DNA from: Ignavibacteria bacterium
GTDB lineage: Bacteria > Bacteroidota > Ignavibacteria > Tepidaquicellales > Tepidaquicellaceae
Reading direction: 5' to 3'
NCBI GenBank assembly: GCA_036508135.1
Contig: DATCHW010000016.1
Span: 2,500-66,499, forward strand
Length of the DNA stretch: 64,000 nt
A model generated the notes under the pieces. That model worked only from the letters and a program-made list of their open reading frames with translations. It did not search any database and was not told where the DNA came from. The stretch's first letter is position 1. Every line of letters begins with the position of its first letter. The translations under genes were made by a program, and so were the position numbers. Below are positions 13,905-59,927 of this stretch, one piece after another.

Positions 13905-13942
13905 CCTCTCAAAAATCAGACGACTGAGGGGCTTTTTGTTTT
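13905..13942 (+). terminator. Possible rho-independent terminator
   Basis: CCTCTCA-N13-TGAGGGG (one G:T pair) followed by CTTTTTGTTTT. Confidence 0.3.
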
Positions 13943-13962
13943 ATGTGAAATTATTCTTAACT

Positions 13963-40337: not shown

Positions 40338-40568
40338 TCATTTTTTCAGTAATTCTTCAGCGTGCATCCGAATTGTTTTTTCTATTGTTCTTTTAAAAGG
40401 TGCAGCCAGAAAGGGGATATCCCCTTTTATCAATACTTCTGACTCACTTATGGCTAAACTTCCGCTGACCTTGAAGCTTTTAATCTTAAATTTAAATTAT
40501 CCGGTGCTGCCCGACCAGGATTCTTCTAAATCACTGATTCGGTCTGAATGTTGGGCTTTTAAATCCGG
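40338..40568 (-). pseudogene. PHA-granule-like gene copy, 5'-truncated with an internal nonsense codon
   Basis: Aligns to 55535-55765. CAA is changed to TAA at 40497-40499. Homology ends at ..aaatccgg (40568). Confidence 0.75.
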
Positions 40569-41368: not shown

Positions 41369-42379
41369 TTATTGACCTATTTTCAACACTGACCTGAAAT
41401 GCACTTTTGCGGTCATCATTTTTTCATAAGCCAATGCCGCTTGTTCCAAAGGAAATACTTCAACCATTGGAATAATCTTAGTCATGACACTGAAATTAAG
41501 AGCATCTTTTATATTTCCTGTTACAAATCCGCGTATAGAACGTTCACCTCCCAATAAAAGCATTGGAGGTATCTGCATCATATCTCCGGCACCTGTAACA
41601 ATAATTGCCTGCCCGTTACGACCAAGTCCCGGAATTAAATCAGAGATTGCTTTCCCGCTTGGTGCTGTACAAAGAATTACCCGCGCACCGCCTAATTTCA
41701 TTAATTGCTTTACTGCTTCGCCTGTATCAGTATCGATATATACATGAGCACCCAGTTTATAAGCGAGTTCTTCCTTATCCTTGCCGCGGGATAATACTAC
41801 TGTTTTAAATCCTAATTTAACGGCATATTGCACAGCAAGATGTCCCAATCCTCCGAGTCCGTGAATTGCTACGACATCTCCGCCCTGAGCACCACTATGT
41901 ATTAATGCTCCAAAAGTTGTTCTGCCGGCACACAATATAGGTGCTGCATCTATTGAGCTCAGCTCATCAGGAATATTTACCACTGCTTCCGGTCGTGCTA
42001 TCATATATTCAGCATAACCGCCATCCAGGTGAATGCCCGTAGTTAAGGACTTCTCGCAGGCACCGAAATCACCTTTACGGCATGCACTGCACTGATTACA
42101 ATGACCACCGTGCCAGCCAACACCGACTCTTTGTCCTGCTTTCCAGTTAGTAACCATCGGTCCTATTTTATCTACTATCCCCACCACTTCATGCCCCGGA
42201 ACGATTGGATATTTAATTCCGGGAAAATGTCCTTCTTTGGCTATAGCATCTCCATGGCATATCCCGCATGCTTCTACTTTTATTAAAACTTCGTTATTCC
42301 CGGGTTCGGGAATTTCTTTCTGAATTATCTCAAAGTCTGCACCCGGTGAACTTACCTGAACTGCTTTCATTAACTGCAT
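41369..42379 (-). CDS. Zinc-dependent NAD(P) alcohol dehydrogenase
   Basis: 336 aa. GICHGD, GHEVVGIV, structural-Zn Cys cluster CNQCSACRKG, GLGGLGH Rossmann motif. Confidence 0.9.
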   Translation of the reverse strand: MQLMKAVQVSSPGADFEIIQKEIPEPGNNEVLIKVEACGICHGDAIAKEGHFPGIKYPIVPGHEVVGIVDKIGPMVTNWKAGQRVGVGWHGGHCNQCSACRKGDFGACEKSLTTGIHLDGGYAEYMIARPEAVVNIPDELSSIDAAPILCAGRTTFGALIHSGAQGGDVVAIHGLGGLGHLAVQYAVKLGFKTVVLSRGKDKEELAYKLGAHVYIDTDTGEAVKQLMKLGGARVILCTAPSGKAISDLIPGLGRNGQAIIVTGAGDMMQIPPMLLLGGERSIRGFVTGNIKDALNFSVMTKIIPMVEVFPLEQAALAYEKMMTAKVHFRSVLKIGQ

Positions 42380-42562: not shown

Positions 42563-42690
42563 TCATTTCTTCAAAAGTATCTCCGCCTTTTCCGGCAAAG
42601 GGATATCCCCTTTAATCAGTACATAGTTGTTTTCTACTAACAGGCTCCCGCTGACTTTGAAGCCTTTAATCTTGAATTTGAATTGTCCGG
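42563..42690 (-). pseudogene. PHA-granule-like gene, 3' half only (variant type, internal deletion)
   Basis: Encodes ..GQFKFKIKGFKVSGSLLVENNYVLIKGDIPLPEKAEILLKK* with its terminator hairpin. Homology stops at ATTGTCCGG (42682-42690). Confidence 0.7.
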
Positions 42691-42728
42691 CAATTAAATA
42701 TACACTTGTTAGCAGATGTTTAAATAAG

Positions 42729-43211
42729 CTATTCCGGTCTAGGATTTGAGCCGTTAAATAATCTCCATTTCCATTCGTTTCCTTTTTTAACCAGGATACC
42801 TGTAAATCGATATGGAGGTTTTCTTATTTTTCCTGCTTTAGTTTCTACTACCATTTTCCCATCAACAAATACCCAGGCAGTATTACCACTGTAATCAATA
42901 TCAATCCTGTCCATTTCCCAGGAAAAACTGGCATAATCAAAAAGTTGGGTTAGCCATTCTTTGATTTGATTTTTACCTTTAAATACTTCTCCGCTGTCCG
43001 AACCTACTAAGAGTATATTCTCAGAGTCATCAAATAGTGATATCGCTTGATCTACATTCGAATTCTTAGCAGCAGCATTCCACAGTTCCAATGCTTTAGT
43101 AATTTCGCCTTTGACATTATCGGTTAGAATTTGGGCAGTTAAAGAATTAGATACTACTAATAATAAGATGAATATTATTGTCCGAAGGAAAATGTTCTTT
43201 TTCATAATCAT
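42729..43211 (-). CDS. NTF2-like (SnoaL/DUF4440-type) secreted protein
   Basis: 160 aa. Signal peptide; size and pattern typical of NTF2-fold proteins. Confidence 0.55.
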   Translation of the reverse strand: MIMKKNIFLRTIIFILLLVVSNSLTAQILTDNVKGEITKALELWNAAAKNSNVDQAISLFDDSENILLVGSDSGEVFKGKNQIKEWLTQLFDYASFSWEMDRIDIDYSGNTAWVFVDGKMVVETKAGKIRKPPYRFTGILVKKGNEWKWRLFNGSNPRPE

Positions 43212-43236
43212 TTTTATTGTTTAATTATTTATTATC

Positions 43237-43365
43237 GCTAACGTTTTTTGGCTTGGCGAAGTGGGGAATTAAAAATACAAATGTTCAATTTAGTATAAAA
43301 GTACAATAGAATTCTAATGTCCAAATATAGTGCAAAAGCCCCCATTTTGCCAAACCAATGTTAGC
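43237..43365. repeat. 129-bp element bounded by long imperfect inverted repeats (MITE- or attC-like)
   Basis: GCTAAC-gtttttt-GGCTTGGCGAAGTGGGG ...72 nt... CCCCCATTTTGCCAAACC-aat-GTTAGC. 14 of 17 inner pairs are Watson-Crick; the outer boxes are perfect. Confidence 0.6.
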
Positions 43366-43427
43366 AGTAGGCGTTTTTGAGTTATTCATTTTTAATCTCG
43401 TTCCTCCGCCAACAATTTTATCATAAT

Positions 43428-43910
43428 CTAATCCTTAGGCTCCCGCAATTCAATTTTATTTCCTTCAAGGTCTAAAATATGAACAAACTTTCCATAATCA
43501 TATGTTTCAATTTTGTCCACGATAGTTACGTTTTTCTTTTTTAATTCTTCAACCAATACTTCTAAATTATCTACTCTATAGTTTATCATAAAGTCTTTTG
43601 TTGAAGGGTCAAAATATTTTGTATTATCCGGAAAAGGATTCCACACGGTAAGTCCCTTTTTTGTGCTGTCATCATTTTCTCGCCATTCAAAGTTTGTTCC
43701 ATATGGACTTGTGACAAACCCAAGGTGAGTTTTATACCATTCGTTAATTGCTTTTGGATCTTTGCATTTGAAAAAAATGCCGCCGATGCCTGTTACTTTT
43801 TTCATATTAATTGTGCTTTTATTTTGTTGAGATGTTATTATTGTTTTAAATGCGAAACCAAAGCAAAATGATGTCGCAATTATCAGGATTATTAAAGTCG
43901 CTTTTTTCAT
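43428..43910 (-). CDS. VOC (glyoxalase/bleomycin-resistance) family protein
   Basis: 160 aa. N-terminal hydrophobic segment, then GIGGIFFKCKDPKAINEWYKTHLGF and ..FVHILDLEGNKIEL. Confidence 0.75.
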   Translation of the reverse strand: MKKATLIILIIATSFCFGFAFKTIITSQQNKSTINMKKVTGIGGIFFKCKDPKAINEWYKTHLGFVTSPYGTNFEWRENDDSTKKGLTVWNPFPDNTKYFDPSTKDFMINYRVDNLEVLVEELKKKNVTIVDKIETYDYGKFVHILDLEGNKIELREPKD

Positions 43911-44109
43911 TGCTTATATAAAGTTATATTTTTTTTCGTTATCGAATACTTGTTACTCTGTTATTGTTGGTTGTCGTCACGCTTACCGCTAAAGTATATA
44001 TTTATAATAAAAAGAAACCTGTACATCTATAATTATTCAGATTTAATTCTATAAACAAATTTATTTTTTGAAAAATTCAAATGGAAAGAAATATTCCTTT
44101 ATCAAAAAA

Positions 44110-44142
44110 CGAATATCCTCCCTAACTGCTGGAGGATATTCG
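44110..44142. repeat. Perfect 12-bp-stem hairpin, member of a repeated hairpin family
   Basis: CGAATATCCTCC-ctaactgct-GGAGGATATTCG. The same stem occurs at 44666 and 47002. Confidence 0.85.
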
Positions 44143-44366
44143 CAATGTGATTAAATTTAAAATTAAAATTTAAAACCCTGATGGTTTTGAATATACGGTT
44201 TTGTCATAATTAACAACTACAGAAGTCTCAAAGGATGTTTGAAAATAGACTATTCCTATTATTCCCAATAAAATCAGAACTTTCCTATTTCTTTCATAAT
44301 AGAACTTTAAAATATTTGAAAATTATTATTACTCCTTCTAAACTAGTGCTTAGGAAGGAGGATAAA

Positions 44367-44567
44367 TCATTCATTATCTGTTTTATTTGTGTTTGACCAT
44401 TGGATAAAACGTGTAAATGAGACTCCAATCGACATCCCCAATGCAAGGATAAACCAGAAGCCGGCATCACTTGGTTTACATTCTATTCTGGAATTAAAAA
44501 CTATAAACAAACAGGTCGTTATTATAACCGGGAATAAAACAGCCAATAGACCTTTTCTCTTTTTCAT
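44367..44567 (-). CDS. Small two-TM membrane protein (hypothetical)
   Basis: 66 aa with two hydrophobic helices; no homology recognised. Confidence 0.35.
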   Translation of the reverse strand: MKKRKGLLAVLFPVIITTCLFIVFNSRIECKPSDAGFWFILALGMSIGVSFTRFIQWSNTNKTDNE

Positions 44568-44665
44568 GTTATTTAATTTATTTATTCAATTAATTAAAGT
44601 ATTCTATTTTCTATCGCTTTCCCAATATATTAATTGCAAATGAAAACTAATATTCCCTTTATAAT

Positions 44666-44783
44666 GCAAATATCCTCCCTTGATGGAGGATATTCGCTAG
44701 CGTATTATGAAAATCTTCCCCGCTCATTGTTCCCAATCAAGTGTTTTAAGACCGAACAGTCATGTTTGGAAAGGAGAGTGATA
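44666..44783 (-). terminator. Repeated ~110-nt double-hairpin element downstream of the T9SS gene
   Basis: AATATCCTCC-cttgat-GGAGGATATT plus the shared tail ..aaaatcttccccgctcattgttc... On the minus strand the hairpin is followed by a T-rich run. Confidence 0.55.
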
Positions 44784-46853
44784 TTATTTTATCAACAACA
44801 TTTTCTTCGTATCTGTAAACCCATCAGTGATTAGTTTGTAGAAATAAACTCCGCTTGAATAATGCGAACCGTCGAACGATGCTTCGTACGTACCGGGCTT
44901 CAGCGATTCGCTCACGAGTGTTTGCACCTCGCGACCCATTACGTCATAAACTTTCAACACCACATTGTCATTCCCGCGAAAGCGGGAATCCAGAGCAACA
45001 TCAAACTTTATCTTCGTCACCGGATTAAATGGGTTAGGATAGTTCTGTGACAGCGAAAATAAAGAAGGAATTGTTGTAGTTATTTGATTTACCGACGTAA
45101 TATCCGAAATCAATCTCCTGCTAATTCCATGATCATAATTTCCTGCATAAATATATCCGTCTGCTGTTATTAAAGCTGATATATTGATTCCTGTAAGTCC
45201 CTCATTTTTTACCACCCATGTATCACCATTGTTCGATGACATGTATATTCCATTACCTGTTGTTCCTGCAAATAAATAATTTCCTTCTGTTAAAATGCAC
45301 CAGGCACCTTTATCTGCTAATACCGCTGACCAGTTTGCACCTTCATTGCTTGAACGTAACACTCCCGGTACATTGTTGCAGGCAGCAAATAAATAATTAG
45401 AATTAGCAGTAATATCCATAACTGAATTTATATTCATAACTGAATCCCAACTGACTCCTTCATTAGTCGTAAAATACAGACCTGTCAGGAAATAATGATT
45501 ATCCCTGAACATTCCTGTGAATATTTTTGAGCCTCTTTGATAAAAACAATTAGGAACACAACCTGTACGGTTATATACACCATTCCAGCTAACTCCGTTA
45601 TTAGTAGATTTATATATTCCTGAATATGCGGCACCTGCGTATAAATTAGAATTAAAATTCTTTAGTGCATAAATCGTTATTCTGTTCAGAGATGATTTTG
45701 TCCAGTTTATTCCGTTATCGGATGAAATATAAACACCCCCTGTATCTGAAATATAATCATATATACCTGCATAGAGAGTTGTTCCAATAGATGTCATTGA
45801 TCGCGCACTCAGCCGTGGATTAAGTTTTGATTGTATCCAGTTTAATCCTCCGTCACCCGAATAATATATCCCATTGCTTACTCCTGCGAACAATCTTGTA
45901 TTAAGTTTATAAAAACAATATACATTAATGTCAGGCGGTAAATAGTGTGTCCAGCTTAATCCGTTATCAGATGATAAGTGAACACCTCCGTATTCTAATC
46001 CTAATATTAAAACATTATTCACTTTTGAAAGCGATATCACTTTTCCATTTGGAACTGTGTTTAATAAATTCCAGGTTGTACCATTGTCTGTTGATTTATA
46101 AAACTCATAAATTGAAGTACTTGCAATCGTACTCAAATAAATATCCGCGCCTATAACTGTTATATTATAAATTGGACGTCCCTGGAATGCTGAATTAACC
46201 CAGCTAATACCATTGTCGGAAGATTTATACAATCCGTTTAATGTTGTACCAGCAAATATTATTCCGTTAATTGTATTCATTGATGAGACAGAAACACTGT
46301 CAAGTCCTCTTACGCTCCAGTTAACTCCGTTGTTTGAGGAATATATCACTTTTCCCGGCGAATATTCTCCCGTTCCTATTCCCGCAAAAATATAATTATC
46401 CTTTACTGTAAGTGAAGTAACAAAGTTAGATCCTGCACCATAAACAGTTGACCAGTTATAACCATTATTTGTGGATTTCAGTATAGCTGTTCCATTAGAT
46501 GCAAATATATCAGAACCGAATGATATCATACTCGTGAAACTGTAGTATGAATTAGAGGTTTGAGTCCAGTTTATTCCTTCGTTGGTTGAAACAAATATAC
46601 CTCCAGACCCTGCTGTTATAAGGTAGGAATTTTTTTGAAGTATTACTGATAAATTAACGGTTAAAGAAGACTGCACCCATTTAATACCGTTATTCGTCGA
46701 ATAATAAAAACCTGTCTGATTTGCAGAATATACTTTCCCGTTTGCAGAATAAGTGTAATAGGAAACACTCGGTAATCCTGAACTTACGGATGCCCACTGC
46801 CCATTAGCATTCATTGCTACGAGCATTACTAAGATGAAAAATAACTTTTTCAT
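44784..46853 (-). CDS. BNR/Asp-box (Ycf48/sortilin-like) beta-propeller repeat protein with T9SS C-terminal sorting domain
   Basis: 689 aa with a signal peptide. More than 12 repeats of S.(N/D)(N/G)G..W. C-terminus LSQNYPNPFNPVTKIKFDV...YFYKL. Confidence 0.85.
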   Translation of the reverse strand: MKKLFFILVMLVAMNANGQWASVSSGLPSVSYYTYSANGKVYSANQTGFYYSTNNGIKWVQSSLTVNLSVILQKNSYLITAGSGGIFVSTNEGINWTQTSNSYYSFTSMISFGSDIFASNGTAILKSTNNGYNWSTVYGAGSNFVTSLTVKDNYIFAGIGTGEYSPGKVIYSSNNGVNWSVRGLDSVSVSSMNTINGIIFAGTTLNGLYKSSDNGISWVNSAFQGRPIYNITVIGADIYLSTIASTSIYEFYKSTDNGTTWNLLNTVPNGKVISLSKVNNVLILGLEYGGVHLSSDNGLSWTHYLPPDINVYCFYKLNTRLFAGVSNGIYYSGDGGLNWIQSKLNPRLSARSMTSIGTTLYAGIYDYISDTGGVYISSDNGINWTKSSLNRITIYALKNFNSNLYAGAAYSGIYKSTNNGVSWNGVYNRTGCVPNCFYQRGSKIFTGMFRDNHYFLTGLYFTTNEGVSWDSVMNINSVMDITANSNYLFAACNNVPGVLRSSNEGANWSAVLADKGAWCILTEGNYLFAGTTGNGIYMSSNNGDTWVVKNEGLTGINISALITADGYIYAGNYDHGISRRLISDITSVNQITTTIPSLFSLSQNYPNPFNPVTKIKFDVALDSRFRGNDNVVLKVYDVMGREVQTLVSESLKPGTYEASFDGSHYSSGVYFYKLITDGFTDTKKMLLIK
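44970..44989. repeat. GC-rich palindromic element embedded in-frame in the T9SS domain
   Basis: ATTCCCGC-gaaa-GCGGGAAT encodes ..SRFRGND.. on the coding strand and ..IPAKAGIQ.. on the opposite strand. Confidence 0.7.
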
Positions 46854-47001
46854 AATCTTTTATGTTTTAAATATTTTCCTGACTATTTATAACTGGTCAG
46901 GAGGTGAAAAAATATTTTAAACGGGAGTCCGCCGCGGTGGATTATCTCTCACCTAAATTTAAGAATTTTATTCGCTAATTGTCACGTATTTTATCTAAAA
47001 C

Positions 47002-47104
47002 GCAAATATCCTCCCTTTGTGGAGGATATTCGCATTGTTTTATAAAATCTTTCCCGCTCATCGTTCACAAAAGAAACCGTGAACGAGAGCAATAGAAGTA
47101 ATAA
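47002..47104 (-). terminator. Repeated double-hairpin element downstream of katG
   Basis: GCAAATATCCTCC-ctttgt-GGAGGATATTCGC plus TCGTTCAC-N10-GTGAACGA. Shares the ..aaaatctttcccgctcatcgttc.. tail with 44700-44740. Confidence 0.6.
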
Positions 47105-49294
<2,190 letters not shown>

Positions 49295-49372
49295 TTATAA
49301 AGTAATAAACTATTTATTTCCTGATAAGGTTTCATAACACTGGCAGGTGATAAGGAACTCTGAGAGGAAAAA

Positions 49373-49936
49373 TTATCTTATTATAGTGTTGTGTTCATCT
49401 GTTACTATTCTTTTTTCCCATTCCCTTCTAGTTTGTTCCATTGTTTTTCTAATAAGTTCATCCGTTAATCCTAATCTGTCTGCATATATTTTTGTGTAAT
49501 TAGTGAGCTTTTCATCTAACACTTTTGCCCGTTCACAGAATTCAATAAAATCTTTTATCATCCTTTTCTGTCCACTATCGGAATAAAATAATTCATTATT
49601 AAATCGAAAATAATCATGAGTAATGTAGTTTCTTAATTTTAAAACATTATTTAATTCAATGCTATCTTCATCCGATAAATTATAAAGAACACTTACTTCT
49701 TTTATTAATTTCCCAAAAGTTCGTTTACCTAAGTCATAAGTATCCCATAGTTCATTAATTTCTTTTGGAGATCTCAAGTTATCTTTTGATTGTCGGAAAA
49801 CTGCAATCATATTAATAGATTGTTGCTCTAAAACTTGTGCACAAAATACTGCCTGTCCAAAATGAGCATAGATTTCTTTAGCTTTATTGTTACTATCTAA
49901 AGTCTCGAATAATTCAATTTCTGTCTTATAGTCCAT
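49373..49936 (-). CDS. HEPN-like (Rx4H motif) hypothetical protein
   Basis: 187 aa, predicted all-helical. ..LKLRNYITHDYF.. fits the HEPN R-x4-H catalytic motif. Confidence 0.45.
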   Translation of the reverse strand: MDYKTEIELFETLDSNNKAKEIYAHFGQAVFCAQVLEQQSINMIAVFRQSKDNLRSPKEINELWDTYDLGKRTFGKLIKEVSVLYNLSDEDSIELNNVLKLRNYITHDYFRFNNELFYSDSGQKRMIKDFIEFCERAKVLDEKLTNYTKIYADRLGLTDELIRKTMEQTRREWEKRIVTDEHNTIIR

Positions 49937-50094
49937 GTTTGATTCTTAAATTCTCCTTCCCAAGGTCTACCTTGAGAGGACATTGCTACAATTAGTAATT
50001 CTAATTTGTATTTGATTTTTATTCTTCTCACCTTCCCAAGGAAAGATTGAGAAGACGAGAAGAAATCATTCTTGAGCACTTTGGGATTTTCTCT

Positions 50095-50157
50095 GGTTAC
50101 TATGCTCCAGCGTAGTAACCATTTAATTTCCCGTTACAACGCCGGAGCATTGTAACG
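50095..50157 (-). other. Pair of 26-nt hairpins with mutually complementary loops in the leader of the HEPN-like gene
   Basis: GGTTACTA-tgctccagcg-TAGTAACC (50095-50120) and CGTTACA-acgccggagcat-TGTAACG (50132-50157). One unit is the near-exact reverse complement of the other. Confidence 0.6.
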
Positions 50158-50194
50158 AGAAATATCTATCATCCGTAACCGGAAAAAAACTTTT

Positions 50195-50223
50195 CCCCTC
50201 CTTCAAGCGAATAACAGGAGGGG
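50195..50223 (-). terminator. Rho-independent terminator after the membrane-protein gene
   Basis: Minus strand: CCCCTCCT-N13-AGGAGGGG followed by aaaagTTTTTTT. Confidence 0.65.
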
Positions 50224-50248
50224 GAATACGATGACGCGACGAACGTTT

Positions 50249-50794
50249 TCAAAAAACTTTTACACCTTTACACAAAATAAATTGTAATATTGATATTATC
50301 AGAAGAATAATGTAAAAAAACATGAGAAATAATGAAAGTTTTATCATTTGTTTCGATACTGAAGGTTTCTTTAGTATAGATTTTCTAATCATTAAATCAA
50401 ATTTATTTGGCTCTTTAATAGAATCATCAATTTGAAGAAATGATTCAACATCCTTATTAATTGTATCATAATTTACAGAGAAGAAATTCATTCCACTACC
50501 TGAAGTAGAGTGTTTTTCAAATTCTGCAGTTTTCTTTTCCCATCTTGTTTGCCAAAACTTGCTACCCAAATTAACTTTATACCATAATCTTGATACAATA
50601 ATTCCAAACACTGATATAATTATTGAGAATATTATATTATTCTTCAAATTTAATAAAACACCAGTAGCAATAGCAGTACATAAAATTAAGAAATAATTAC
50701 TCCTTTGCCAGAACATTTTTATTTCAAAATTACGAGTTTCAATTGCTAAATTATAAAATTCTTTATTATTTATTGATTCATTTGTATAATCCAT
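50249..50794 (-). CDS. Three-TM membrane protein (hypothetical, possible effector)
   Basis: Likely start MDYTNES.. (181 aa); the long ORF extends to 50884. ..RNFEIKMFWQRSNYFLIL.. is followed by two TM helices, a soluble segment, and a C-terminal TM. Confidence 0.6.
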   Translation of the reverse strand: MDYTNESINNKEFYNLAIETRNFEIKMFWQRSNYFLILCTAIATGVLLNLKNNIIFSIIISVFGIIVSRLWYKVNLGSKFWQTRWEKKTAEFEKHSTSGSGMNFFSVNYDTINKDVESFLQIDDSIKEPNKFDLMIRKSILKKPSVSKQMIKLSLFLMFFYIILLIISILQFILCKGVKVF

Positions 50795-50937
50795 ATTTAA
50801 TATTTTAAATATAAAAAAAATATTTTCTCCTCTTTCCCAAAGTCCTCTTTGGGAATGAAAAGAAAGTTCTACTTTTAATTGCAAAAATAATTTAGATAAA
50901 CACTTTTCCTACAATTTACCAATTTTATTTTAAAAAA

Positions 50938-50972
50938 AGACTTCAAAACCTTTCGGGTTTGAAGTCTTTTTG
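50938..50972. terminator. Bidirectional rho-independent terminator
   Basis: AAAAAAAGACTTCAAAACC-tttc-GGGTTTGAAGTCTTTTT. Confidence 0.7.
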
Positions 50973-51215
50973 TTTATCGTTGGGGGAGGTTAATCCGAAC
51001 GAAATTAATTTCTTATTTAAAGAAAAAAAAGAAATTCTCTCATCCACAACAAACGCCTGTATCCAGGCTCGTGCGGTTTATCTTTGTAAACATGCTTCAG
51101 AAATTGTGCTCACCTCCTTCACCGCATCAGGAAACTCGCTCACCTTTTCCCGCTTCATCATCATCGGGTATGTAAACAGCATAACACTTCTGCTCTACTT
51201 CCGGAAGTATCAATA

Positions 51216-51590
51216 TTATCCCTTAAACTTATCCTCCACCTCCTTCACCGCATCAAGAAACTCGCTCATCTTCTCCATCGCCACACCTTTCCCGACATTC
51301 GAAACGCTCTTCACTTCCTGCTGACGTATTTTCCACAACGGATGGCTTTCTGTAGCGCGCTCTTCCTTATCCGCCACCCAGTAAAACAAATCACTCGGCA
51401 GGCACTTCAGAGCCACGCACAATTTCTCTATATGCCCGGGAGTTAGCCCAGCCATTTTCTCCGTCCCGAGTCTCGAAGCCACATTCCGCGAAAACCCTTT
51501 TCTCCTCAAAAAAGCATAAGGTTGAGTAATTCCTCTCAGCTTCATCAGATTTTTAATGTTATATTTCAGCATAAATCTCCTTTTCTGCAA
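51216..51590 (-). CDS. XRE-type helix-turn-helix DNA-binding protein
   Basis: The likely start is MLKYNIKNLMKLRGI.. at 51572. HTH ..LRRKGFSRNVASRL.. and ..IEKLCVALKCLPSDLFYW... Sits next to the 21-bp repeat array. Confidence 0.7.
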   Translation of the reverse strand: MQKRRFMLKYNIKNLMKLRGITQPYAFLRRKGFSRNVASRLGTEKMAGLTPGHIEKLCVALKCLPSDLFYWVADKEERATESHPLWKIRQQEVKSVSNVGKGVAMEKMSEFLDAVKEVEDKFKG

Positions 51591-51653
51591 ATATAATAAT
51601 TCATTTCCACTTAATTAACACATTTTTCGAAACATTATTTTACGCCGCCCCTT

Positions 51654-52072
51654 CTCAATTTTATACTTCCAAACTCAATTAAAATCCTTTTCCTCTCAAT
51701 TCAAACACTTATCGTGTCAATTTATACTCTTGCCAGGTCGATTTCCACCCTTGGACACTCAATTTATATGTCTAACTACTCAATTGATATGCATTGCCAC
51801 TCAATTAATATGCATTGCCACTTAATAAATATGTATAAACACTCTATTAATATGCATACCTACCCAATTGATATGCATAGACACTTAGTTTGTATGTCTA
51901 AACACTTAATAAATATGCATAAACACTCTATTAATATGCATACCTACTCAATTGATATGTATAGACACTTAATTTGTATGCTTAACCACTCAATTTGTAT
52001 TACCGGTGATTAGATTTCTTCATCTTCCAATCCAATTTCCACCCCCGCCAATTCAATTTCCACCCCCGCCTT
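51654..52072. repeat. Array of 20 contiguous 21-bp direct repeats (iteron/centromere-like)
   Basis: The CTCAATT-type core recurs at 51654, 51674, 51695, 51716 ... 52052, spaced exactly 21 bp after the first unit. The best units read CACTCAATTRATATGCATNNN. An 84-bp higher-order repeat spans 51819-51986. Confidence 0.95.
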
Positions 52073-52184
52073 TTCCCTAATAGTTGATTCAATCTGACCT
52101 CTAAAGGGCAGAGCCAGAAAGGGGATATCCCCTTTTATCAATACTTCTGACTCACTTGCGGCCAAACTTCCGCTGACTTTAAAG
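52066..52184 (-). pseudogene. PHA-granule-like gene fragment (both ends replaced)
   Basis: ORF 52010..52216 encodes ..FKVSGSLAASESEVLIKGDIPFLALPFRGQIESTIREKA, then runs into the repeat array. It shares its 5' breakpoint with the 54696..54860 copy. Confidence 0.7.
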
Positions 52185-52359
52185 CAGGATACAGAATACT
52201 CCTTGGGGAATTTCATCTAAACTACGAGCTTGTGGGTTACTTTTAATTTCATTCAAAAGCATATCCGCAAATTTCTTTGGAATTTATAACATTCAATTTT
52301 GTTCTTTCTTATGTTTTTAAAAAAATTAAATAATCCCACACGGTTTATTTTTGTTATTT

Positions 52360-52737
52360 TCACCAGACATAAGCGTCTCCTACTCTTCTAACTTCTGATG
52401 GTGCTCTGTTGTGAATTAACATTGCAGTACTTAATGCAACTAAATAGTTATAATACTTTTCAATTTGAGCTTCATTGAAATGATGAATACAATATCCGGT
52501 TAAATGAATCTTCAATCTTTCTTTATCAAACTCTTTTGCAATTCTACTAATTGCAATTGATTTTAAGAAGATAGCTCTTGCTGTGCCACAATCAATTTTG
52601 TTATTTAAAATACACAATAATTCTTTAGTTCCTGCATTAACGTCTTTTTCACCTTTTGGGAACATAGAATCAAACATTTTATCTAATCGTTCCTTTAATG
52701 GAATTTTTTTATGTCTAAGAAAACTTAAGAAGCCCAT
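52360..52737 (-). CDS. Hypothetical protein
   Basis: 125-aa ORF, no motif recognised. Confidence 0.45.
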   Translation of the reverse strand: MGFLSFLRHKKIPLKERLDKMFDSMFPKGEKDVNAGTKELLCILNNKIDCGTARAIFLKSIAISRIAKEFDKERLKIHLTGYCIHHFNEAQIEKYYNYLVALSTAMLIHNRAPSEVRRVGDAYVW

Positions 52738-52876
52738 AATTTGTACTTTATCATTTGCCTACTCTAAATCGGTTTTCGGCTTTCCCCGTTATTTTATTCC
52801 TCTCAACAGTTTGCTTATACGAACATTTTCAAAACACATACAATTTAAAAAATAATTAATAAGGTAAATTGTCATA

Positions 52877-54139
52877 TTAATCTTTCCAAAATGCATTCGA
52901 CATTAATTCTTGCTCTTCTTTTGAAATGTTATGTTTTTTTGCATAAGTATTCCAATTACTTACAACTTTTTTAATTATGTTAATAATTTCTTTTGCATTT
53001 TTAGAGTTAACCCTAAAAAATTCTGCGACTTCTAATGCTAATTGTAAATCAAGAGAATTATCATTATCAGAAATATTTAAATTTAAACCGGTTCCCATTG
53101 GATTTGGATTAACATCATAGGCAGGTGACAAAGTCCAACCAGCTTGAGTTAGAAAAAAACCGTGATTTCTTAGATGGTCATCTGTGTTTTTGACACAAAT
53201 ATTAAAGACAATTCTTCTCCATATCTCTTCAAGGTCAGTATTAGTATTACTTCCGTTTCTAATTAAGAATTCTGCTAATTCCAAATAACTAACACCATCT
53301 GCATGGTCTGTATATCCTAACATAGTCATTGCGGAAGCAAAATGTATTCTTTTTCCATTTTCTTCTCTATCAAATCTTTTTGTAAGATACGTATGATGAT
53401 TTACCGTAAACTTTTTAACCATTCCTTTTGCTACGTTTATTCCTGATTTGACTGCTAACTCATTTGTGATCATTTCCCATAAGCCTTTGTCAATATCATC
53501 TTTTGTACTTGGAAATTTAGCAATCCATAAATGTTTTTTTTCATCTATTACACTTGCTTTCGGTCTAGCACCCCCTAATGAAGAACCGGGAGCAATTAAT
53601 AAATTCAACCATTTCATATAATCTGGATCTTCACTTATATTTTCCTTTTCCAATTGTAAACTGGCAAACTCTAAATCTCTAATTTCAGCCCAAGGAGGAG
53701 TAGCCATTTTTTTGTTATCGTTTAAGAATGGTCCTTCATTATTTTCTTTAAATCTTAAAGCTCCCATTCTATGTCCGTCAAATACACCTAATAGATAATC
53801 AGTTTCTAACAGAGTTTTTTCGCTTCTCTTTTCTCGTTTTGCTAAAGCTGCTTCACGTCTTTTCATCAATACCCTTCCCCATCTATCAGGAGACGAATCT
53901 AAAAAAACTCCAAAATTCTCTTTTTCATCTCTCAAATATTGAGAGCCTCTATATAGCTGTAAATCCGGATCGAGTGTTTGAGCTATCCCTGATTTTAACC
54001 ATTTCTCGTCATATTCAAAAGAAAAAATTTCTTTACCTCTTGAAAGAACAACATTTAATATTCCCATCAGTTCTGGTCTTTCAAATTCTCTCCAATCAGC
54101 ATATACGTATAATTGTTTTTTACTTTCCTTATGTGCCAT
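52877..54139 (-). CDS. hipA: HipA-family serine/threonine kinase toxin
   Basis: 420 aa. N-terminal coupling domain (LYVYADW..GIL). Kinase motifs GGARPKASV and TDDHLRNHGF. Confidence 0.9.
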   Translation of the reverse strand: MAHKESKKQLYVYADWREFERPELMGILNVVLSRGKEIFSFEYDEKWLKSGIAQTLDPDLQLYRGSQYLRDEKENFGVFLDSSPDRWGRVLMKRREAALAKREKRSEKTLLETDYLLGVFDGHRMGALRFKENNEGPFLNDNKKMATPPWAEIRDLEFASLQLEKENISEDPDYMKWLNLLIAPGSSLGGARPKASVIDEKKHLWIAKFPSTKDDIDKGLWEMITNELAVKSGINVAKGMVKKFTVNHHTYLTKRFDREENGKRIHFASAMTMLGYTDHADGVSYLELAEFLIRNGSNTNTDLEEIWRRIVFNICVKNTDDHLRNHGFFLTQAGWTLSPAYDVNPNPMGTGLNLNISDNDNSLDLQLALEVAEFFRVNSKNAKEIINIIKKVVSNWNTYAKKHNISKEEQELMSNAFWKD

Positions 54140-54460
54140 TTATTTTGTTTTGATTTTAGGGGCTCTTTTCTTTTCTAATATTTTTGCGTCTTGAAGTTTT
54201 CGTCCAAGAATATCGTCTTTCGCAATATTTAATAGATCTTTTTCCAAACCCAATACAAAAATAACCTGTGCATATGCTCCCATTGAAACTCGAGGTGACC
54301 CTTTTTCAATTTGCCATAATGTAACTCTATTAACATCTGCTCTTTCTGCAACTTGAGTAGTGCTTAGTTTTCTTCGTAGTCTGGCAAGTTTTATATTTAT
54401 TCCCAAATCAGCCAAAATTTCTATGACTGAAGGGGATATTCCTGAATTTATTTCTTTCAT
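54140..54460 (-). CDS. XRE-family HTH antitoxin (HipB-like)
   Basis: 106 aa. ..LSTTQVAERADVNRVTLWQIEKG... Its stop abuts the hipA start. Confidence 0.8.
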   Translation of the reverse strand: MKEINSGISPSVIEILADLGINIKLARLRRKLSTTQVAERADVNRVTLWQIEKGSPRVSMGAYAQVIFVLGLEKDLLNIAKDDILGRKLQDAKILEKKRAPKIKTK

Positions 54461-54486
54461 AATGTTAATTTATATAAACAATAATA

Positions 54487-54510
54487 GTTGATTTGTTTAT
54501 TATAATCAAC
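54487..54510. promoter_or_regulatory. Candidate operator palindrome upstream of the HTH-hipA operon
   Basis: GTTGATT-N10-AATCAAC, 27 nt upstream of the HTH start codon. Confidence 0.3.
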
Positions 54511-54695
54511 ATTATAATTAATGCAATAAATATAAAAAAAATATATATTACTCCTTCTTTTATTAGTAAACAACCATTTTAAAATTATAATGTATAGTTT
54601 CAGAACTTAGTAGACCAATAAGGATGATTTAAAAAGAGATGAAATTCATTAAAATTAAACCAAGAAAAAAAGAGAAAAAATGAGCAGTCCCCCAC

Positions 54696-54860
54696 TCATT
54701 TCTTCAAAAGTATCTCCGCCTTTTCCCGAATTGTTGATTCAATGGTGCCGTTAAAAGGTGTAGCCAGCAAAGGGATATCCCCTTTTATCAATACGTAGTT
54801 GTTTTCTACTAATAGGCTCCAGCTGACTTTGAAACCTGATACAGCGAAATCGGCTTGCAT
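54696..54860 (-). pseudogene. PHA-granule-like gene, 5'-truncated variant copy
   Basis: Encodes ..SGFKVSWSLLVENNYVLIKGDIPLLATPFNGTIESTIREKAEILLKK* with a terminator hairpin aatgag-N10-ctcatt. Confidence 0.65.
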
Positions 54861-54990
54861 GAATTTATCATAATAATTTTCGAAGCATCGTGCGTCATTT
54901 ATTTGTATTATATTGGTATATTGAAATCAAATAAATCAAGAGAATTTATTTTCTAAAGTTTATGAGTTCATTTGAAAATTTTAACCATTT

Positions 54991-55323
54991 TCAAATTCCC
55001 ATGTTGGCCAGCATACTTGCAATTTTATTAACTTTATCAACTAACTTCGGATGTGATACTTCAAACTCTTTAACCGATGCATATAAACCGTCAATAGACA
55101 ATTTGAAAAGATTTGAATTTTTATGCTTTCGGGTCGCTTCGTGAGTGGAACGTTCCATAAAACCAACTATGCTTTCGGCATGCTCTGCTTTCGATTTAGC
55201 TAATTCTGAAATTTCTTTCTTAAGTTTCACAATTAAACTAAGAAGCTCAGATTTTTTTTCTTTGCTGAGAATATCATATGTGCGAATTTTCTCTTCGATA
55301 TTTTCAAGTGTATTCTTTTTCAT
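54991..55323 (-). CDS. DUF4404-like small helical protein
   Basis: 110 aa, coiled. The C-terminus ..HPKLVDKVNKIASMLANMGI is typical of DUF4404. Preceded by element E3. Confidence 0.5.
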   Translation of the reverse strand: MKKNTLENIEEKIRTYDILSKEKKSELLSLIVKLKKEISELAKSKAEHAESIVGFMERSTHEATRKHKNSNLFKLSIDGLYASVKEFEVSHPKLVDKVNKIASMLANMGI

Positions 55324-55357
55324 TTAATTTCTAATTTAAATTATTTACAAAATGAAT

Positions 55358-55432
55358 GTAATAATCCTTTGAGTGCGATCAGTGGATTATTTGTTTGGTG
55401 AAAATTACTAAGTTTGGAAATTAAAACAAATG
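55358..55432 (-). promoter_or_regulatory. Conserved promoter plus 5' hairpin element, copy E3
   Basis: Minus strand: TTTG-N19-TAATTTTC, then AATAATCC-N16-GGATTATT hairpin. Confidence 0.5.
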
Positions 55433-55534
55433 AATTATTCAAAGTTCAAAGTGTTGATTATATGTGAAATAGAATAAAAGTACAAATTTCTATTCTGTTC
55501 GGATTTATCAAAAAAATGAGCAATTTTGTAATGC

Positions 55535-55843
55535 TCATTTCTTCTGCAACAATTCCTCCGCCTTTTCCCTAATAGTTGATTCAATCTGACCTCTAAAGGG
55601 CAGAGCCAGAAAGGGAATATCCCCTTTTATCAATACTTCTGACTCACTTACGACCAAACTTCCGCTGACCTTGAAGCCTTTAATCTTGAATTTAAATTGT
55701 CCGGTGCTGCCCGACCAGGATTCTTCTAAATCACTGATTCGGTCTGAATGTTGGGCTTTTAAATCCGGAAGGAATTGTTGGATTCGGGTTAAAGCTTCTG
55801 TTTGAGTTAGTTCGTGTGGTACTTTTATTTCTAGTTTTGGCAT
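55535..55843 (-). CDS. Polyhydroxyalkanoic-acid-system (PHA_gran_rgn)-like small protein, the only intact copy
   Basis: 102 aa. MPKLEIKVPHELTQTEALTRIQQFL...W.G....F.F...G..V.G.L.V....V.I.G..PF...PF...IE..I fits the family pattern as I recall it. Confidence 0.6.
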   Translation of the reverse strand: MPKLEIKVPHELTQTEALTRIQQFLPDLKAQHSDRISDLEESWSGSTGQFKFKIKGFKVSGSLVVSESEVLIKGDIPFLALPFRGQIESTIREKAEELLQKK

Positions 55844-56460
55844 GATTTTATTTTATGATAGTTAGAGATAGTATTCTCTAATTTCAAAAACAATGTTAAA
55901 ATGATTATTAAATAACATACGCATTAAGTCATAAATAATTTAATCATGCGAGTAGCAGAACTATTGCAGTTACTTCATAATTAACGTAACCGTAGTACAA
56001 TTCTAATAAAGGTAACTTATTATGATAAAGGCATCAATACAAGACCGTAGTTCTATTGATAGTAATGCATCATAATATTGCAGGAAGGAAGGATCTTCAT
56101 GAATGATTCAACCAAAGAAACGAAAAAGTTATGTACAGTCTGTAAACAAACTATAAGACATAATTTGCTATTCAGAGATCTCAGAGGAAGCAATACCAGT
56201 AAGTAATAACAGTTAGTTTTAACCGTTAAGGAAGAAAGTAGATATTATTCAGGAAAGCCGTATAAGGAAAAACCGAGCGTACAATTTGATGAGGAGTCAA
56301 GAGAAACAGACTGCTACTACAGAAGTATAGCAACCTTGTCCCACTCTATAATATTATCGATAATCGGTATCAAGAAACGTATTAAAAAGAAAGCAGGTCT
56401 AAGCCTGCCTTCTTTATTAAAAAAATTCAGAGAAATAATTTACTATTAGTAAATTTGTCG

Positions 56461-57678
56461 TTATTTAATCAACGTCATTCTCTTTGTCTCGGTGTAATTT
56501 TCGGTTTCAAATCTATAAAAATATATTCCACTAGAATAATTACTTGCATTCCAAATAACTTCATAAACTCCCGGATTCATTTCTTCATTTATTAAGTACT
56601 CAAGCAACCTTCCGTTTATATCATAAATATTCAATTTGACATAACTTGATTTGGGAATCTCAAATTTTATGTTAGTCGATGGATTAAATGGATTGGGAAA
56701 GTTTTGATGTAGCATGAAATCTGAAGGAATTTTATTGTTACCGTTCGTTGTGAATGTCAAACCACCATCTGTAGTATTATAAATCTGTCCTACGTCTCCG
56801 ACAGCCCATCCAAGATTGAGATTGACAAAATATGCCGCACGAACCCAGCCGGTCAACGTACTAACTTGTACAATCCAATTACTACCACCATTCGTTGTTT
56901 TCATCACTATTCCGCCATCACCTGTGATGTAACCGGTTGTGTTGTCAATAAAATATGTGCAATATAAAGAACCTGTATATGGACTTGTCTGCGAAACCCA
57001 GCTGTTACCACCATCCGTTGTTTTCTTAATTAAGCCATTTGATCCAACACCATATCCCGTCGATTCACTCGGAAAATGTATGGAAAAAAACATAGTTGTT
57101 GTTCCGGTAACAACGGAATCCCAGTTTGTTCCTGCATTTGTTGTTTTCAGAATTTTTCCTCCTTGACCGCCTATCCAGCCCGTACTCGGATTGATAAAAA
57201 ATATGCTGTAAAGAAGTGTAGACCCGGCACCTGTTTGCGCTGTCCAGTTGTTTCCCGCATCCGTTGTTTTCATTATTTTCCCGCTGAGACCCACAAAATA
57301 TCCTATTGAATCACTCGTGAAATATATCGAATAATTGTTTGTTGAACCAAGGGTTTGTGTTGTCCAGTTTTCCCCCGCATTGGTCGTCTTTGAAAAATGA
57401 CCGGTTGCTCCTGCAATGTATCCGGTTGTCGGAGAAGTAAAGCATACACCATATAAATATTTTGTAGTAAAACTTATTTGAGTTGACCAGTTAACTCCTC
57501 CATTGGTTGTTTTAAGTATTGTCCCGCTTTGTCCGACTACCCAGCCGGTATTTTCATTTATAAATTTTACGGACCAGAGAATATTTGATGTTCCGCTTAA
57601 TTGTTGAGTCCATTGAGCATTTAAACCGGTTATAAATAAAAAAAGAGTAATAACGGATAATACGATTAGCTTTTTCAT
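56461..57678 (-). CDS. BNR/Ycf48-like beta-propeller protein with T9SS C-terminal sorting domain
   Basis: 405 aa with a signal peptide. Repeats ..KTT(N/D)(A/G)G.NW... C-terminus LHQNFPNPFNPSTNIKFEIP..YFYRF. Confidence 0.85.
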   Translation of the reverse strand: MKKLIVLSVITLFLFITGLNAQWTQQLSGTSNILWSVKFINENTGWVVGQSGTILKTTNGGVNWSTQISFTTKYLYGVCFTSPTTGYIAGATGHFSKTTNAGENWTTQTLGSTNNYSIYFTSDSIGYFVGLSGKIMKTTDAGNNWTAQTGAGSTLLYSIFFINPSTGWIGGQGGKILKTTNAGTNWDSVVTGTTTMFFSIHFPSESTGYGVGSNGLIKKTTDGGNSWVSQTSPYTGSLYCTYFIDNTTGYITGDGGIVMKTTNGGSNWIVQVSTLTGWVRAAYFVNLNLGWAVGDVGQIYNTTDGGLTFTTNGNNKIPSDFMLHQNFPNPFNPSTNIKFEIPKSSYVKLNIYDINGRLLEYLINEEMNPGVYEVIWNASNYSSGIYFYRFETENYTETKRMTLIK

Positions 57679-57874
57679 AATGTTATTTTTTTAAAAATGT
57701 TAAAAAACATAAAAGAAACGATTCAATTGTCTAAAATATAAATTGTTTATATTTTTGAGTTGTTGGAAATGTTTTACCTTTTCCTGTACAACATTACCGC
57801 TTTCCTTTTGTAAAATCAATTCTAAAAACAAATATTATTTCAAAAATCAACAGAGAAAATTTCTGATGAACGGC

Positions 57875-58020
57875 ATTGTCCGGTGCTTCCGGACCAGGAT
57901 TCTTCTAAATCACTGATTCGGTCTGAATGTTGGACTTTTAAATCCGGAAGGAATTGTTGGATTCGGGTTAAAGCTTCTGTTTGAATTAGTTTGTGTGGTA
58001 TTTTTATTTCGAGTTTTGGT
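57875..58020 (-). pseudogene. PHA-granule-like gene, 5' half only, start codon lost
   Basis: Encodes PKLEIKIPHKLIQTEALTRIQQFLPDLKVQHSDRISDLEESWSGSTGQ, then unrelated sequence. Homology begins at ATTGTCCGG (57875-57883). Confidence 0.7.
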
Positions 58021-58194: not shown

Positions 58195-59661
58195 TTACTG
58201 TTTGTTATTTTCCTTCTTATTATTTGAATTCGATTGTGTTGTATTGTCTTTTAGAACCGGATTAACTTTAGGTGCCGGATTAACTTTAGGTGCCGGATCA
58301 ACCTTAGGAGCCGGATTAACTTTAGGTGCCGGATTAACTTTAGGTGCCGGATTAACTTTAGGTGCCGGGTTAACCTTAGGAACAGTGTTAATATTCGAAT
58401 TTGTATTTCCGGACTTTATTATATTCTCGCTTTTATTACTTGTATTATTTGTGTTTCCGGTTTTAATACCCGTGTTATTTGTGTTCTCTGTTTTTATAAC
58501 CGTTTTTTTATCATTATTAGTATTGTTCAAATTTTCTTTTGTTTTTGTGTTTATAGTGGTATTAATTTTTGTATTTTTATCATTTGCAGAATTTTTATCA
58601 ACACCTTTATTAATAATTTCAGTTTTTGGTGCGGGTTCTTTAGTTATCTTTTTTTCTACTGTTTTAGTTACAACAGCATTTTTCTTTTTTGTATTTATAT
58701 TAATTTTCGGGTCAGTTTTAGTTACTGATTTTTTATCTACGACTTTTTCGATTGATTTCACATCGGGACCGGAATTAAAAAGTTTTTTACCTTCCTGTTT
58801 CAATCCTATAGTCTGATTTGAGTTAGTTAATATTCCTTTATTGTTTTTATATGGCATAACTGTTGAGACACTAACTTCTTTTGTGAAATCTTTTGTTTTG
58901 ACAAAAACCCAATGGTTCTCGTTAAAATGATGGTTGCCCCATGATGTAAAATTCCATTCTCTATGACGTATGCGTGGAGATATCGGATACCACCCTTCAT
59001 AATTTCTATGATGAGACCAGAAAACCCAGGCGGGAGCCCATCTTCGTCCCGGTGACCATACCCAGCCATAAACAGGAGAATACCACCATCTTCCGTAATG
59101 ATAAGTTGCCCAACCCCATCTGTAATTAGACTCCCAGCTCCAGCCCCTAAATGTCCAGGTCCAGCTTCCATTTGTATAAGGATTCCATCCTTCACCCGTA
59201 TAATGCGAGTTTGGTATCCAGATTGTATTAGTGTAAATATCCTCGTCCATAGCATCATTTTCACCGGAGGTAATATTTTCAGGGTCAACTTCATTTTCAT
59301 TTATTGATACAAATTCACCGTCAGAAGAAAGTGAATTCTGCAATGTCATAAGGCTGATTGTATCTTCGGTATTAGCTGTTTCATCAGAATAACTTGAATC
59401 TTCGGAGGGAATCGAAGCATCTGTTAAATACGAATCTTCGGAAGAATATGAATTAACAGGGATATATGAATTAGATGTAAAATCTGAGTTAACATCAGGA
59501 TTGTTTGCATTATAGATATTATCGTTCTGATTTGAATTTTCCGAAAGATTTTTTTTGCCGGTTACCAAGGAGCGGGTATTACTAACCGAATTTGTACTAT
59601 TATTGATTGCCGCAAATAAAACCGCAGCAAACAAGCTAATTAATATTACTATTGTTTTCAT
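58195..59661 (-). CDS. Secreted Trp-rich-core protein with a low-complexity Asn/Lys/Pro tail (DUF6600-like?)
   Basis: 488 aa with a signal peptide. Central ..WGWATYHYGRWWYSPVYGWVWSPGRRWAPAWVFW... C-terminal (PAPKVN)x7. Confidence 0.7.
   Translation of the reverse strand: MKTIVILISLFAAVLFAAINNSTNSVSNTRSLVTGKKNLSENSNQNDNIYNANNPDVNSDFTSNSYIPVNSYSSEDSYLTDASIPSEDSSYSDETANTEDTISLMTLQNSLSSDGEFVSINENEVDPENITSGENDAMDEDIYTNTIWIPNSHYTGEGWNPYTNGSWTWTFRGWSWESNYRWGWATYHYGRWWYSPVYGWVWSPGRRWAPAWVFWSHHRNYEGWYPISPRIRHREWNFTSWGNHHFNENHWVFVKTKDFTKEVSVSTVMPYKNNKGILTNSNQTIGLKQEGKKLFNSGPDVKSIEKVVDKKSVTKTDPKININTKKKNAVVTKTVEKKITKEPAPKTEIINKGVDKNSANDKNTKINTTINTKTKENLNNTNNDKKTVIKTENTNNTGIKTGNTNNTSNKSENIIKSGNTNSNINTVPKVNPAPKVNPAPKVNPAPKVNPAPKVDPAPKVNPAPKVNPVLKDNTTQSNSNNKKENNKQ
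58257..58382. repeat. 18-bp tandem repeat x7 (encodes PAPKVN repeats)
   Basis: CCGGATTAACTTTAGGTG units are contiguous from 58257. Confidence 0.95.
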
Positions 59662-59927
59662 TTTAGTACTCCTTTCGTGTTTTCTTTTTTATTTTCTTTA
59701 ACACAATTTAATTATTTTTTGTTCCCCCCCTCGGGGGTAAATTTTTCACTATCTTTCTTTAATAGTTAGACACGGAATATTTTAAAAACCTTCGGTTAAT
59801 TTTTGGAATCATAAATGAAACGGTGCCGGCTGAGTTAAATTTAGACACACCTTGTTTTCCATTCAATATGTTACTTTTTATTGCTAATTTTACACACATT
59901 GGTGTTAGTTAATCAAATTAATTCGAT

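Follow-up and report, generated by a model that had tools for sequence, protein, structure and literature searches.

An uncultured Ignavibacteria bacterium carries a 15,184-bp island of accessory genes that interrupts a small protein-coding gene in some members of its population and is missing from others. The window that we analyzed, a 64,000-nt stretch of contig DATCHW010000016.1 (assembly GCA_036508135.1, a metagenome-assembled genome (MAG) of 311 contigs with 3% contamination), contains two complementary pieces of this gene, here called gene X. The original prediction had inferred from these two stumps, by sequence alone, that one gene was split by a 15.2-kb insertion, and in this it was correct. 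Positions 42691-57874 are a real insertion with a 9-bp direct repeat at its borders; elsewhere in the population, gene X is intact and has a single CCGGACAAT (gene strand) at that site. The parts of the locus that bear on this conclusion are the following.

58195-61997: right flank, DUF6600 gene (58195-59661, minus strand) and M13 peptidase gene (59928-61997, plus strand); conserved in empty and occupied haplotypes
57875-58020, minus strand: 5' half of gene X; orthologous to the 5' half in the empty contig L010, with a common upstream flank
57875-57883: 9-bp direct repeat ATTGTCCGG, junction on the 5' side of the gene
42691-57874: inserted island, 15,184 bp; absent from the empty haplotype, ~100% identical in L018-L026
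42682-42690: 9-bp direct repeat ATTGTCCGG, junction on the 3' side of the gene
42563-42690, minus strand: 3' half of gene X, 'B' variant; downstream flank as in L010 and L006
40613-42379, minus strand: left flank, zinc alcohol dehydrogenase (ADH) gene (41369-42379) and nitroreductase gene (40613-41332); conserved in empty and occupied haplotypes

Two halves of a small gene share 9 bp at their broken ends

The only intact copy of the small gene in this genome is carried by the island itself (55535-55843, minus strand; 102 aa) and is referred to here as A. Its product matches PF09650 (PHA_gran_rgn) over its full length (residues 5-99), scoring 54.2 bits against a cut-off of 26.6, and a protein search with this copy found 51 homologues, nearly all of 100-103 aa. 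We number gene X, 309 nt long and encoding 102 aa, from its ATG. The 5' half spans nt 4-148; it has lost the ATG, carries 7 private substitutions and is 95% identical to A. The 3' half spans nt 140-309 and has a 39-nt internal deletion. The halves overlap by exactly nt 140-148, and both broken ends carry the 9-mer, with unrelated sequence beyond. On the plus strand, homology to the gene stops at 42690 in the 3' half (..cttgaatttgaATTGTCCGG/caattaaat, the slash marking the junction) and starts at 57875 in the 5' half (..gatgaacggc/ATTGTCCGGtgcttccgg), and the intact copy is continuous across the same site (..aatttaaATTGTCCGGtgctgcc.. at 55696-55704). The sequence is thus exactly as first described. 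The 9-mer by itself is unremarkable: the window contains five occurrences (0.35 expected), three of them within copies of the small gene, and the whole genome 45, against ~14 expected from base composition. It is the empty site that lifts the observation above chance.

The site is empty in nine metagenome samples

A search of relatives or metagenomes for the empty site had been proposed as the decisive check. A protein search with the intact copy returned close relatives in metagenomes, and their contigs revealed it. We also joined the two window flanks by script with a single 9-mer and aligned this query to metagenome contigs. Nine contigs from nine samples, all from the same species-level population, have an intact gene and a single 9-mer where the window has 15,184 bp. 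In eight of these, from eight samples, the joined flanks gave one colinear match across the junction; the ninth empty-type contig (L140) was found separately. On the 91-kb contig L010 (JGI 3300048803), the gene order is M13 peptidase, a 496-aa DUF6600 protein, the intact 102-aa gene (P0003), zinc ADH, nitroreductase, a 64-aa open reading frame (ORF) and a TPR protein. Positions 3994-10148 of L010 match window positions 64000-57875 at 94.7%, and positions 10140-14751 match window positions 42690-38114 at 95.4%; what these two matches have in common is the 9-mer and nothing more, and L010 has it once, at 10140. The 5' half of X in the window and that of the intact L010 gene are orthologs with a common upstream flank, and the 3' half has the same downstream flank as L010 and L006. 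Because the flanks are 98-100% identical between haplotypes, a few variable patches aside, we regard the haplotypes as one species-level population. The species-representative genomes contained no usable empty site, with same-genus synteny beginning only at ~59855; no outgroup with conserved synteny was present among the genomes searched, and synteny is lost even within the genus.

The occupied form recurs in independent assemblies at 99.6-100% identity (L018-L026, comprising a 98-kb ENA contig and several JGI and Logan contigs), and the ENA contig, L018, spans both of its junctions. The same left junction (CACCGGACAAT/GCCGTC..) is found in L123, from a lineage that is ~4% diverged. An assembly chimera across repeated gene copies, or a chance resemblance, might be suspected in a fragmented and slightly contaminated MAG with a repeated gene. 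Since both junctions recur in independent assemblies, from other samples and other assemblers, the occupied form is not an assembly artifact, and with the empty site present in nine samples we give this explanation practically no chance.

Later changes at the locus

The two halves in the window look like different sequence variants, which had been named as a possible objection to their forming one gene. Less decayed alleles remove it. In L123 (P0047), the 5' half retains the ATG and is of the empty-allele sequence type, which indicates that the 5' stump in the window was later converted towards the neighboring intact copy. The 3' stump in L006 is without the 39-nt deletion and has an end like that of the empty allele; the corresponding stump in the window resembles a different variant, having been converted to the 'B' variant and having lost 39 nt. 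These comparisons show that the halves of X have decayed since the insertion, through loss of the ATG, the 39-nt deletion and patches converted from neighboring copies.

A third form of the locus is present in four samples (L006-L009). This haplotype has a 1.05-kb insert with the order: X upstream flank, an intact A-type gene (P0002), ~300 nt with another relic of the small gene, a SnoaL gene, the right junction, the old 3' half and ADH. Its right junction (TAATTG/CCGGACAAT) is the same as in the 15.2-kb form, the 9-mer lies at positions 756 and 1802 of L006, and the block 43248-42691 is common to this insert and the window island. The 1.05-kb and empty haplotypes coexist in sample 3300046504, with one contig of each type. 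A further haplotype (L020) leaves the window sequence upstream of 54796, with a DinB-like gene and a B-type relic of greater length in that region. The set of haplotypes shows that the locus has been remodeled again and again, in many cases where copies of the small gene or other short direct repeats lie.

Could the occupied state be ancestral and the empty allele have arisen by deletion between the 9-bp repeats? Deletions between short direct repeats do occur at this locus, as an 82-bp repeat pair in L010 is represented by one copy in the window. Here, however, a deletion must create a full-length, family-typical 102-aa ORF (P0003, PF09650) from two unrelated-looking stumps. Such an outcome is expected only if an insertion had split the gene first, which counts against an ancestral occupied state, and we judge this order of events very unlikely.

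The repeat pair in L010 (L010:14670-14751 and 16033-16114, 89% identical) encloses an extra 1.36 kb that encodes a 149-aa ORF and a Fib_succ_major protein; the window has a single hybrid copy at 38114-38195. Here, short direct repeats have produced a second indel polymorphism.

Relics of the small gene

The genome contains 14 copies or relics of the small gene, compared with 0-5 in 30 relatives. At least ten are 3' relics, whereas only two are 5' relics. Such a predominance of 3' pieces in direct orientation suggests that the gene has undergone recombination many times. The 3' relics start at nt 29, 67, 76, 105, 112, 140, ~141, 149, 165, 167, 184, 206 and 208, some clusters of these starts merely marking the onset of conserved blocks. 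Seven or eight copies lie in the window, all on the minus strand, and seven further relics are on other contigs: C247 (12755-12916 and 20595-20822), C279 (2794-3072 and 14315-14470), C110, C139 and C57. On both C247 and C279, two co-oriented 3' relics are separated by 8-11 kb that include accessory genes (HNH, histidine kinase, DUF5677 and transglutaminase). The small gene is immediately preceded by a gene for cargo of the type IX secretion system (T9SS) in the island, on C247 (Exo_endo_phos, before a relic) and in another genus (L029); this recurrent neighbor may be a reason why the small gene travels with mobile cargo. By comparison, in other MAGs (Ignavibacteria and Verrucomicrobiota), each of eleven loci of this family has a single copy and no relics nearby.

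One older displaced relic lies outside the island in every haplotype.

40342-40568, minus strand: 3' relic of the small gene, nt 76-309

Its context is the same throughout: the intact gene, ADH, nitroreductase and then the relic, starting CCGGATTTA. The first reading of the window had rightly noted that this copy breaks at ..aaaTCCGG (40568). The gene has just two CCGG sites, and these coincide with its two sharpest boundaries, 40568 and 42690. A rough estimate of the probability that both would do so by chance is 0.001-0.01, which suggests that the coincidence is not accidental. The further suggestion that TCCGG may be a preferred breakpoint is not supported: the position of these two boundaries hints at it, but CCGG is neither rare nor avoided in the genome. 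We also considered restriction-driven breakage at CCGG and rejected it: the motif is present at 1.03 of its Markov expectation (13,178 sites), and we saw no sign of a CCGG restriction system.

One of the 5' relics (C139:2650-2752, ending at nt 103) lies in a defense-type island (ResIII/RE_endonuc, SLFN_AlbA_2 and AAA_21; also L128), 6 kb from a tyrosine recombinase gene. It was tried as the partner of a C247 3' relic starting at nt 105 in a second split pair; no empty site was found for this combination.

Origin of the two junctions

The explanation that we favor, and to which we give an even chance, is a single non-homologous insertion that duplicated 9 bp. Both junctions would have been made in one event, either by a transposase-like staggered cut that was then filled in or by a crossover within the 9-bp core CCGGACAAT between a circular form and the gene, with the recombinase acting in trans or since lost. 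In favor of this explanation are the empty site, the recurrence of both junctions in independent assemblies and of the left junction in the diverged L123 lineage, and the overlap, because one staggered or core event gives exactly such a structure; independent breaks would yield an overlap of 1-15 bp with a chance of ~5%, as estimated for a 309-nt gene. The other haplotypes could have arisen later, through homologous recombination among the direct-repeat copies of the small gene. For instance, the T9SS gene would be lost if the two 146-bp repeats of the 5' half (57875-58019 and 55696-55840) recombined, and what lies between A and SnoaL would be swapped. The island would then no longer be autonomous, being gained or lost by allelic replacement through the conserved flanks.

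Several findings weigh against a single insertion: neither an enzyme, nor terminal repeats, nor a donor was found for it. The ORFs of the island and the gaps between them contain no recombinase or transposase domain, and none of the 19 PF00589 (tyrosine recombinase) matches in the genome is on the 99-kb contig C16. There are no terminal inverted repeats, the ends (GCCGTTCATCAG.. and ..TATATTTAATTG) being unrelated, and both 100-nt ends of the island are unique in the genome. The junction pattern expected of a circular form (..TATATTTAATTG-CCGGACAAT-GCCGTTCATC..) is absent from IMG/VR, which is weak negative evidence. The L006-L009 haplotype has the right junction without the left one, and its inner spacer does not derive from the window island by a mere deletion, as the relic in it is only 74% identical. 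Finally, the excess of 3' relics shows that a process yielding only displaced 3' ends is common in this genome. These domain scans and end comparisons bear out the initial remark that terminal inverted repeats and a transposase are missing. The segment ends had been suggested as a place to look for att-like repeats; an att-like palindrome at the right junction (ATTTAATTG-CCGGA-CAATTCAAAT) folds no better than shuffled sequences (z = -0.7) and was rejected. An Rfam scan of 30-64 kb gave nothing above the gathering score.

The main rival, which we consider possible at well below an even chance, consists of two separate illegitimate events, each anchored by homology, as in homology-facilitated illegitimate recombination (HFIR). 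In the first, an A-type gene with cargo ending in SnoaL would have crossed over in or just upstream of the resident gene while its far end joined at the CCGG of nt 140, displacing the old 3' half and giving the L006 type. In the second, a T9SS gene, A and more cargo would have entered by a homologous crossover on the right side, with the left end joined at nt 148, leaving the 5' stump. The 9-bp overlap would be a coincidence, possibly helped by a local hot spot. The L006-L009 haplotype is the exact product of the first event, with an intact hybrid gene, cargo and a 3' relic starting CCGGACAAT, and the relic at 40342-40568 shows the same architecture in all haplotypes. The preponderance of 3' over 5' relics (at least 10 to 2), the single strand shared by all window copies and the further co-oriented 3'-relic arrays on C247 and C279 also fit two such events, as does the location of both well-defined illegitimate junctions at the only two CCGG sites of the gene. 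On the other hand, the end of the 5' stump (nt 148) lies within 9 nt of the start of the 3' relic (nt 140), the coincidence of ~5% given above; two homology-anchored events also presuppose a naturally competent organism, and no donor context was found for the island ends that would allow a comparison of microhomologies. A search for the T9SS gene in JGI metagenomes returned only the same junction or a 71% identical relative without the small gene, and look-ups of SnoaL and ADH gave no new contexts for the island ends.

Target and island have a homologous gene in common, probably not by accident, and we take this as a sign that acquisition is guided by homology or by a site within the gene. Of the one-step and two-step readings, we lean towards the first as the mechanism of entry. 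Of the original proposal that the 9 bp are a target-site duplication or a recombination core, one part stands, namely that a direct repeat bounds the insertion and is single in the empty site; an origin in a single event does not follow, since L006-L009 keep a two-step origin possible.

Comparison with known mobile elements

HFIR is said to have been described during natural transformation by de Vries and Wackernagel in 2002, and its illegitimate junctions are typically G+C-rich microhomologies. The 1.05-kb haplotype and the relic at 40342-40568 resemble its products, each with one junction in homology, the other at a short G+C-rich site, and cargo beside the anchor gene. The 15.2-kb form differs in having two abrupt junctions, neither of them in the anchor. 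In transformable bacteria, segments of 3-10 bp are found at the illegitimate junctions of HFIR (PMC6382021).

We then compared the island with established classes of element. Judged as a site-specific integrative element, it has an identical core at both ends and an empty site with a single core, and it has no recombinase gene. Like the tRNA-targeting att-flanked islands, among them the tycheposons of Prochlorococcus (bioRxiv 10.1101/2020.12.28.424599), it is a cargo-rich, strain-variable block flanked by a short direct repeat, with empty and occupied alleles in one population. As in tycheposons, partial copies of the target gene are scattered within it, as if older arrivals had been pushed along. 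In contrast to those islands, the target is the middle of a small protein-coding gene rather than the 3' end of a tRNA gene, and the gene is not restored at the junction, a whole spare copy lying 2 kb inside instead. Moreover, neither the island nor the contig has an integrase, and the start points of the relics are spread over many positions, without a common core.

DDE transposons of the IS4/IS10/Tn5 and IS1 families make 9-bp target duplications. The island is likewise flanked by a 9-bp direct target duplication that is single in the empty site; however, it has neither a transposase nor terminal inverted repeats, its ends are single-copy and not repeated, and random transposition would not account for the homologue of its target that it brings along. 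The orphan arrays of cdiA/rhs genes consist of displaced 3' ends with partner genes downstream of an intact gene. Here, too, an intact gene is followed by co-oriented displaced 3' fragments with other genes between them, but the repeated gene is a conserved one of 102 aa and not a large toxin gene with a variable tip, and the cargo is of a general accessory kind rather than immunity genes. The long co-oriented run of unrelated small accessory genes, toxin-antitoxin modules included, recalls integron cassette arrays. These differ in that the contig has no intI, shows no excess of attC core pairs and has one attC/MITE-like element only (43237-43365; MITE, miniature inverted-repeat transposable element). 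An integron array or a cluster of attC sites lacking an integron integrase (CALIN) was accordingly rejected, with 8 attC core pairs on both strands compared with ~14 in shuffled sequences and an inverted-repeat scan that returned mostly terminators and no family of such repeats in the intergenic regions.

The island had also been taken for an integrated plasmid-like remnant, and a plasmid might have integrated by a Campbell-type homologous crossover at the small gene, present on both molecules. The HTH gene with its 21-bp array, which could be iteron-like, hipBA, and the copy in the island of its own target gene would all suit a plasmid. Campbell integration, however, leaves two hybrid genes of full length rather than two truncated halves with a 9-bp overlap. 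We found no Rep, Par or relaxase domain in the ORFs of the island or in its gaps, the helix-turn-helix (HTH) protein has no plasmid match, and the island shows no similarity to plasmid or phage records beyond generic hipBA, at 65% DNA identity. The remnant is not borne out by these results, and integration of a plasmid is, in our estimation, hardly plausible.

Thus, the island behaves like an att-flanked flexible genomic island and fails the tests for an integrase-bearing element, a DDE transposon, an integron array and an integrated plasmid. We entertain, as a doubtful possibility, that in this species the PF09650 gene is a dedicated landing pad for acquisition independent of a recombinase, either through gene homology or through a specific site near nt 140-149. 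Each capture would add cargo, displace part of the resident copy and build up co-oriented arrays of relics. If true, this would be a protein-gene analogue of the tRNA-fragment trails of tycheposons that operates without an integrase, and a gene reused as a capture site would let bacteria build flexible islands without obvious mobile-element machinery. The empty, 1-kb and 15-kb forms of this one locus verify variation of gene content within a population of an uncultured lineage. The island is a well-documented but not an exceptional flexible island; what stands out in it is that one small gene has served repeatedly as an anchor for recombination.

Gene content of the island

All 20 ORFs in 37476-59661 are on the minus strand. 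In the order of the gene strand, the island contains the following features, with a gene for a 125-aa unknown protein between hipA and the internal relic.

56461-57678, minus strand: T9SS cargo (BNR/Ycf48-like propeller with Por_Secre_tail), first gene of the island
55535-55843, minus strand: A, the intact PF09650 gene, 102 aa
54991-55323, minus strand: DUF4404 protein
54695-54881, minus strand: divergent 3' relic of the small gene, variant B; L020 departs at 54796
52877-54460, minus strand: toxin-antitoxin pair hipB (54140-54460) and hipA (52877-54139); 65% DNA identity to plasmid-borne hipBA
52063-52185, minus strand: internal relic of the small gene (nt 167-289, 95% identical to A), inside ORF 52010-52216
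51654-52072: array of ~twenty 21-bp direct repeats beside the HTH gene; copy number varies between assemblies
51216-51590, minus strand: HTH_26 (Cro/C1-type) protein, predicted to bind DNA
49373-50884, minus strand: 8xMP membrane protein (50249-50884), then HEPN/HepT-like protein (49373-49936; weak match, below the Pfam cut-off)
47105-49285, minus strand: katG, catalase-peroxidase; katG-glyoxalase block 90-92% identical to a contig of another genus (G008)
44784-46853, minus strand: second T9SS cargo, with BNR repeats
43428-43910, minus strand: glyoxalase-family protein
42729-43211, minus strand: SnoaL-like protein, last gene of the island

This annotation bears out the predicted content of katG, a HEPN/membrane pair, an HTH gene with 21-bp repeats, hipBA and copies of the small gene, the HEPN match being weak. 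The island thereby brings in genes for oxidative stress (katG), a toxin-antitoxin system and secreted proteins. The 21-bp array is variable in length, because the relic ORF and the HTH gene are 438 nt apart in some assemblies and 465 nt apart in others that are otherwise identical; the HTH protein is called as 109, 118 or 124 aa. From katG to the glyoxalase gene (43433-48442), the window matches a contig from another genus of the same family (G008:C170, L001) at 90-92% DNA identity, as opposed to 65-75% for other shared genes, which suggests that this module was recently transferred. The G008 contig ends within the match, at 43433.

Next to this module, at 43237-43365, lies a single 129-bp attC/MITE-like element with GCTAAC/GTTAGC outer boxes, of which we found no second copy. 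It may be a module boundary, since its TTAGCG box (43248) is where the window and the 1.05-kb haplotype begin to match.

In the right flank, an 18-bp tandem repeat encoding PKVNPA (58225-58404, in ORF 58195-59661) varies in copy number between assemblies, and the DUF6600 protein is 488 aa long in the window, 464 aa in L018 and 496 aa in L010. In L123, a G+C-rich palindrome at positions 1-34 (CGCCGCAAGCGGCG) replaces the terminator hairpin downstream of the DUF6600 gene; it is similar to a G+C-rich palindromic insert at 44970-44989 of the window.

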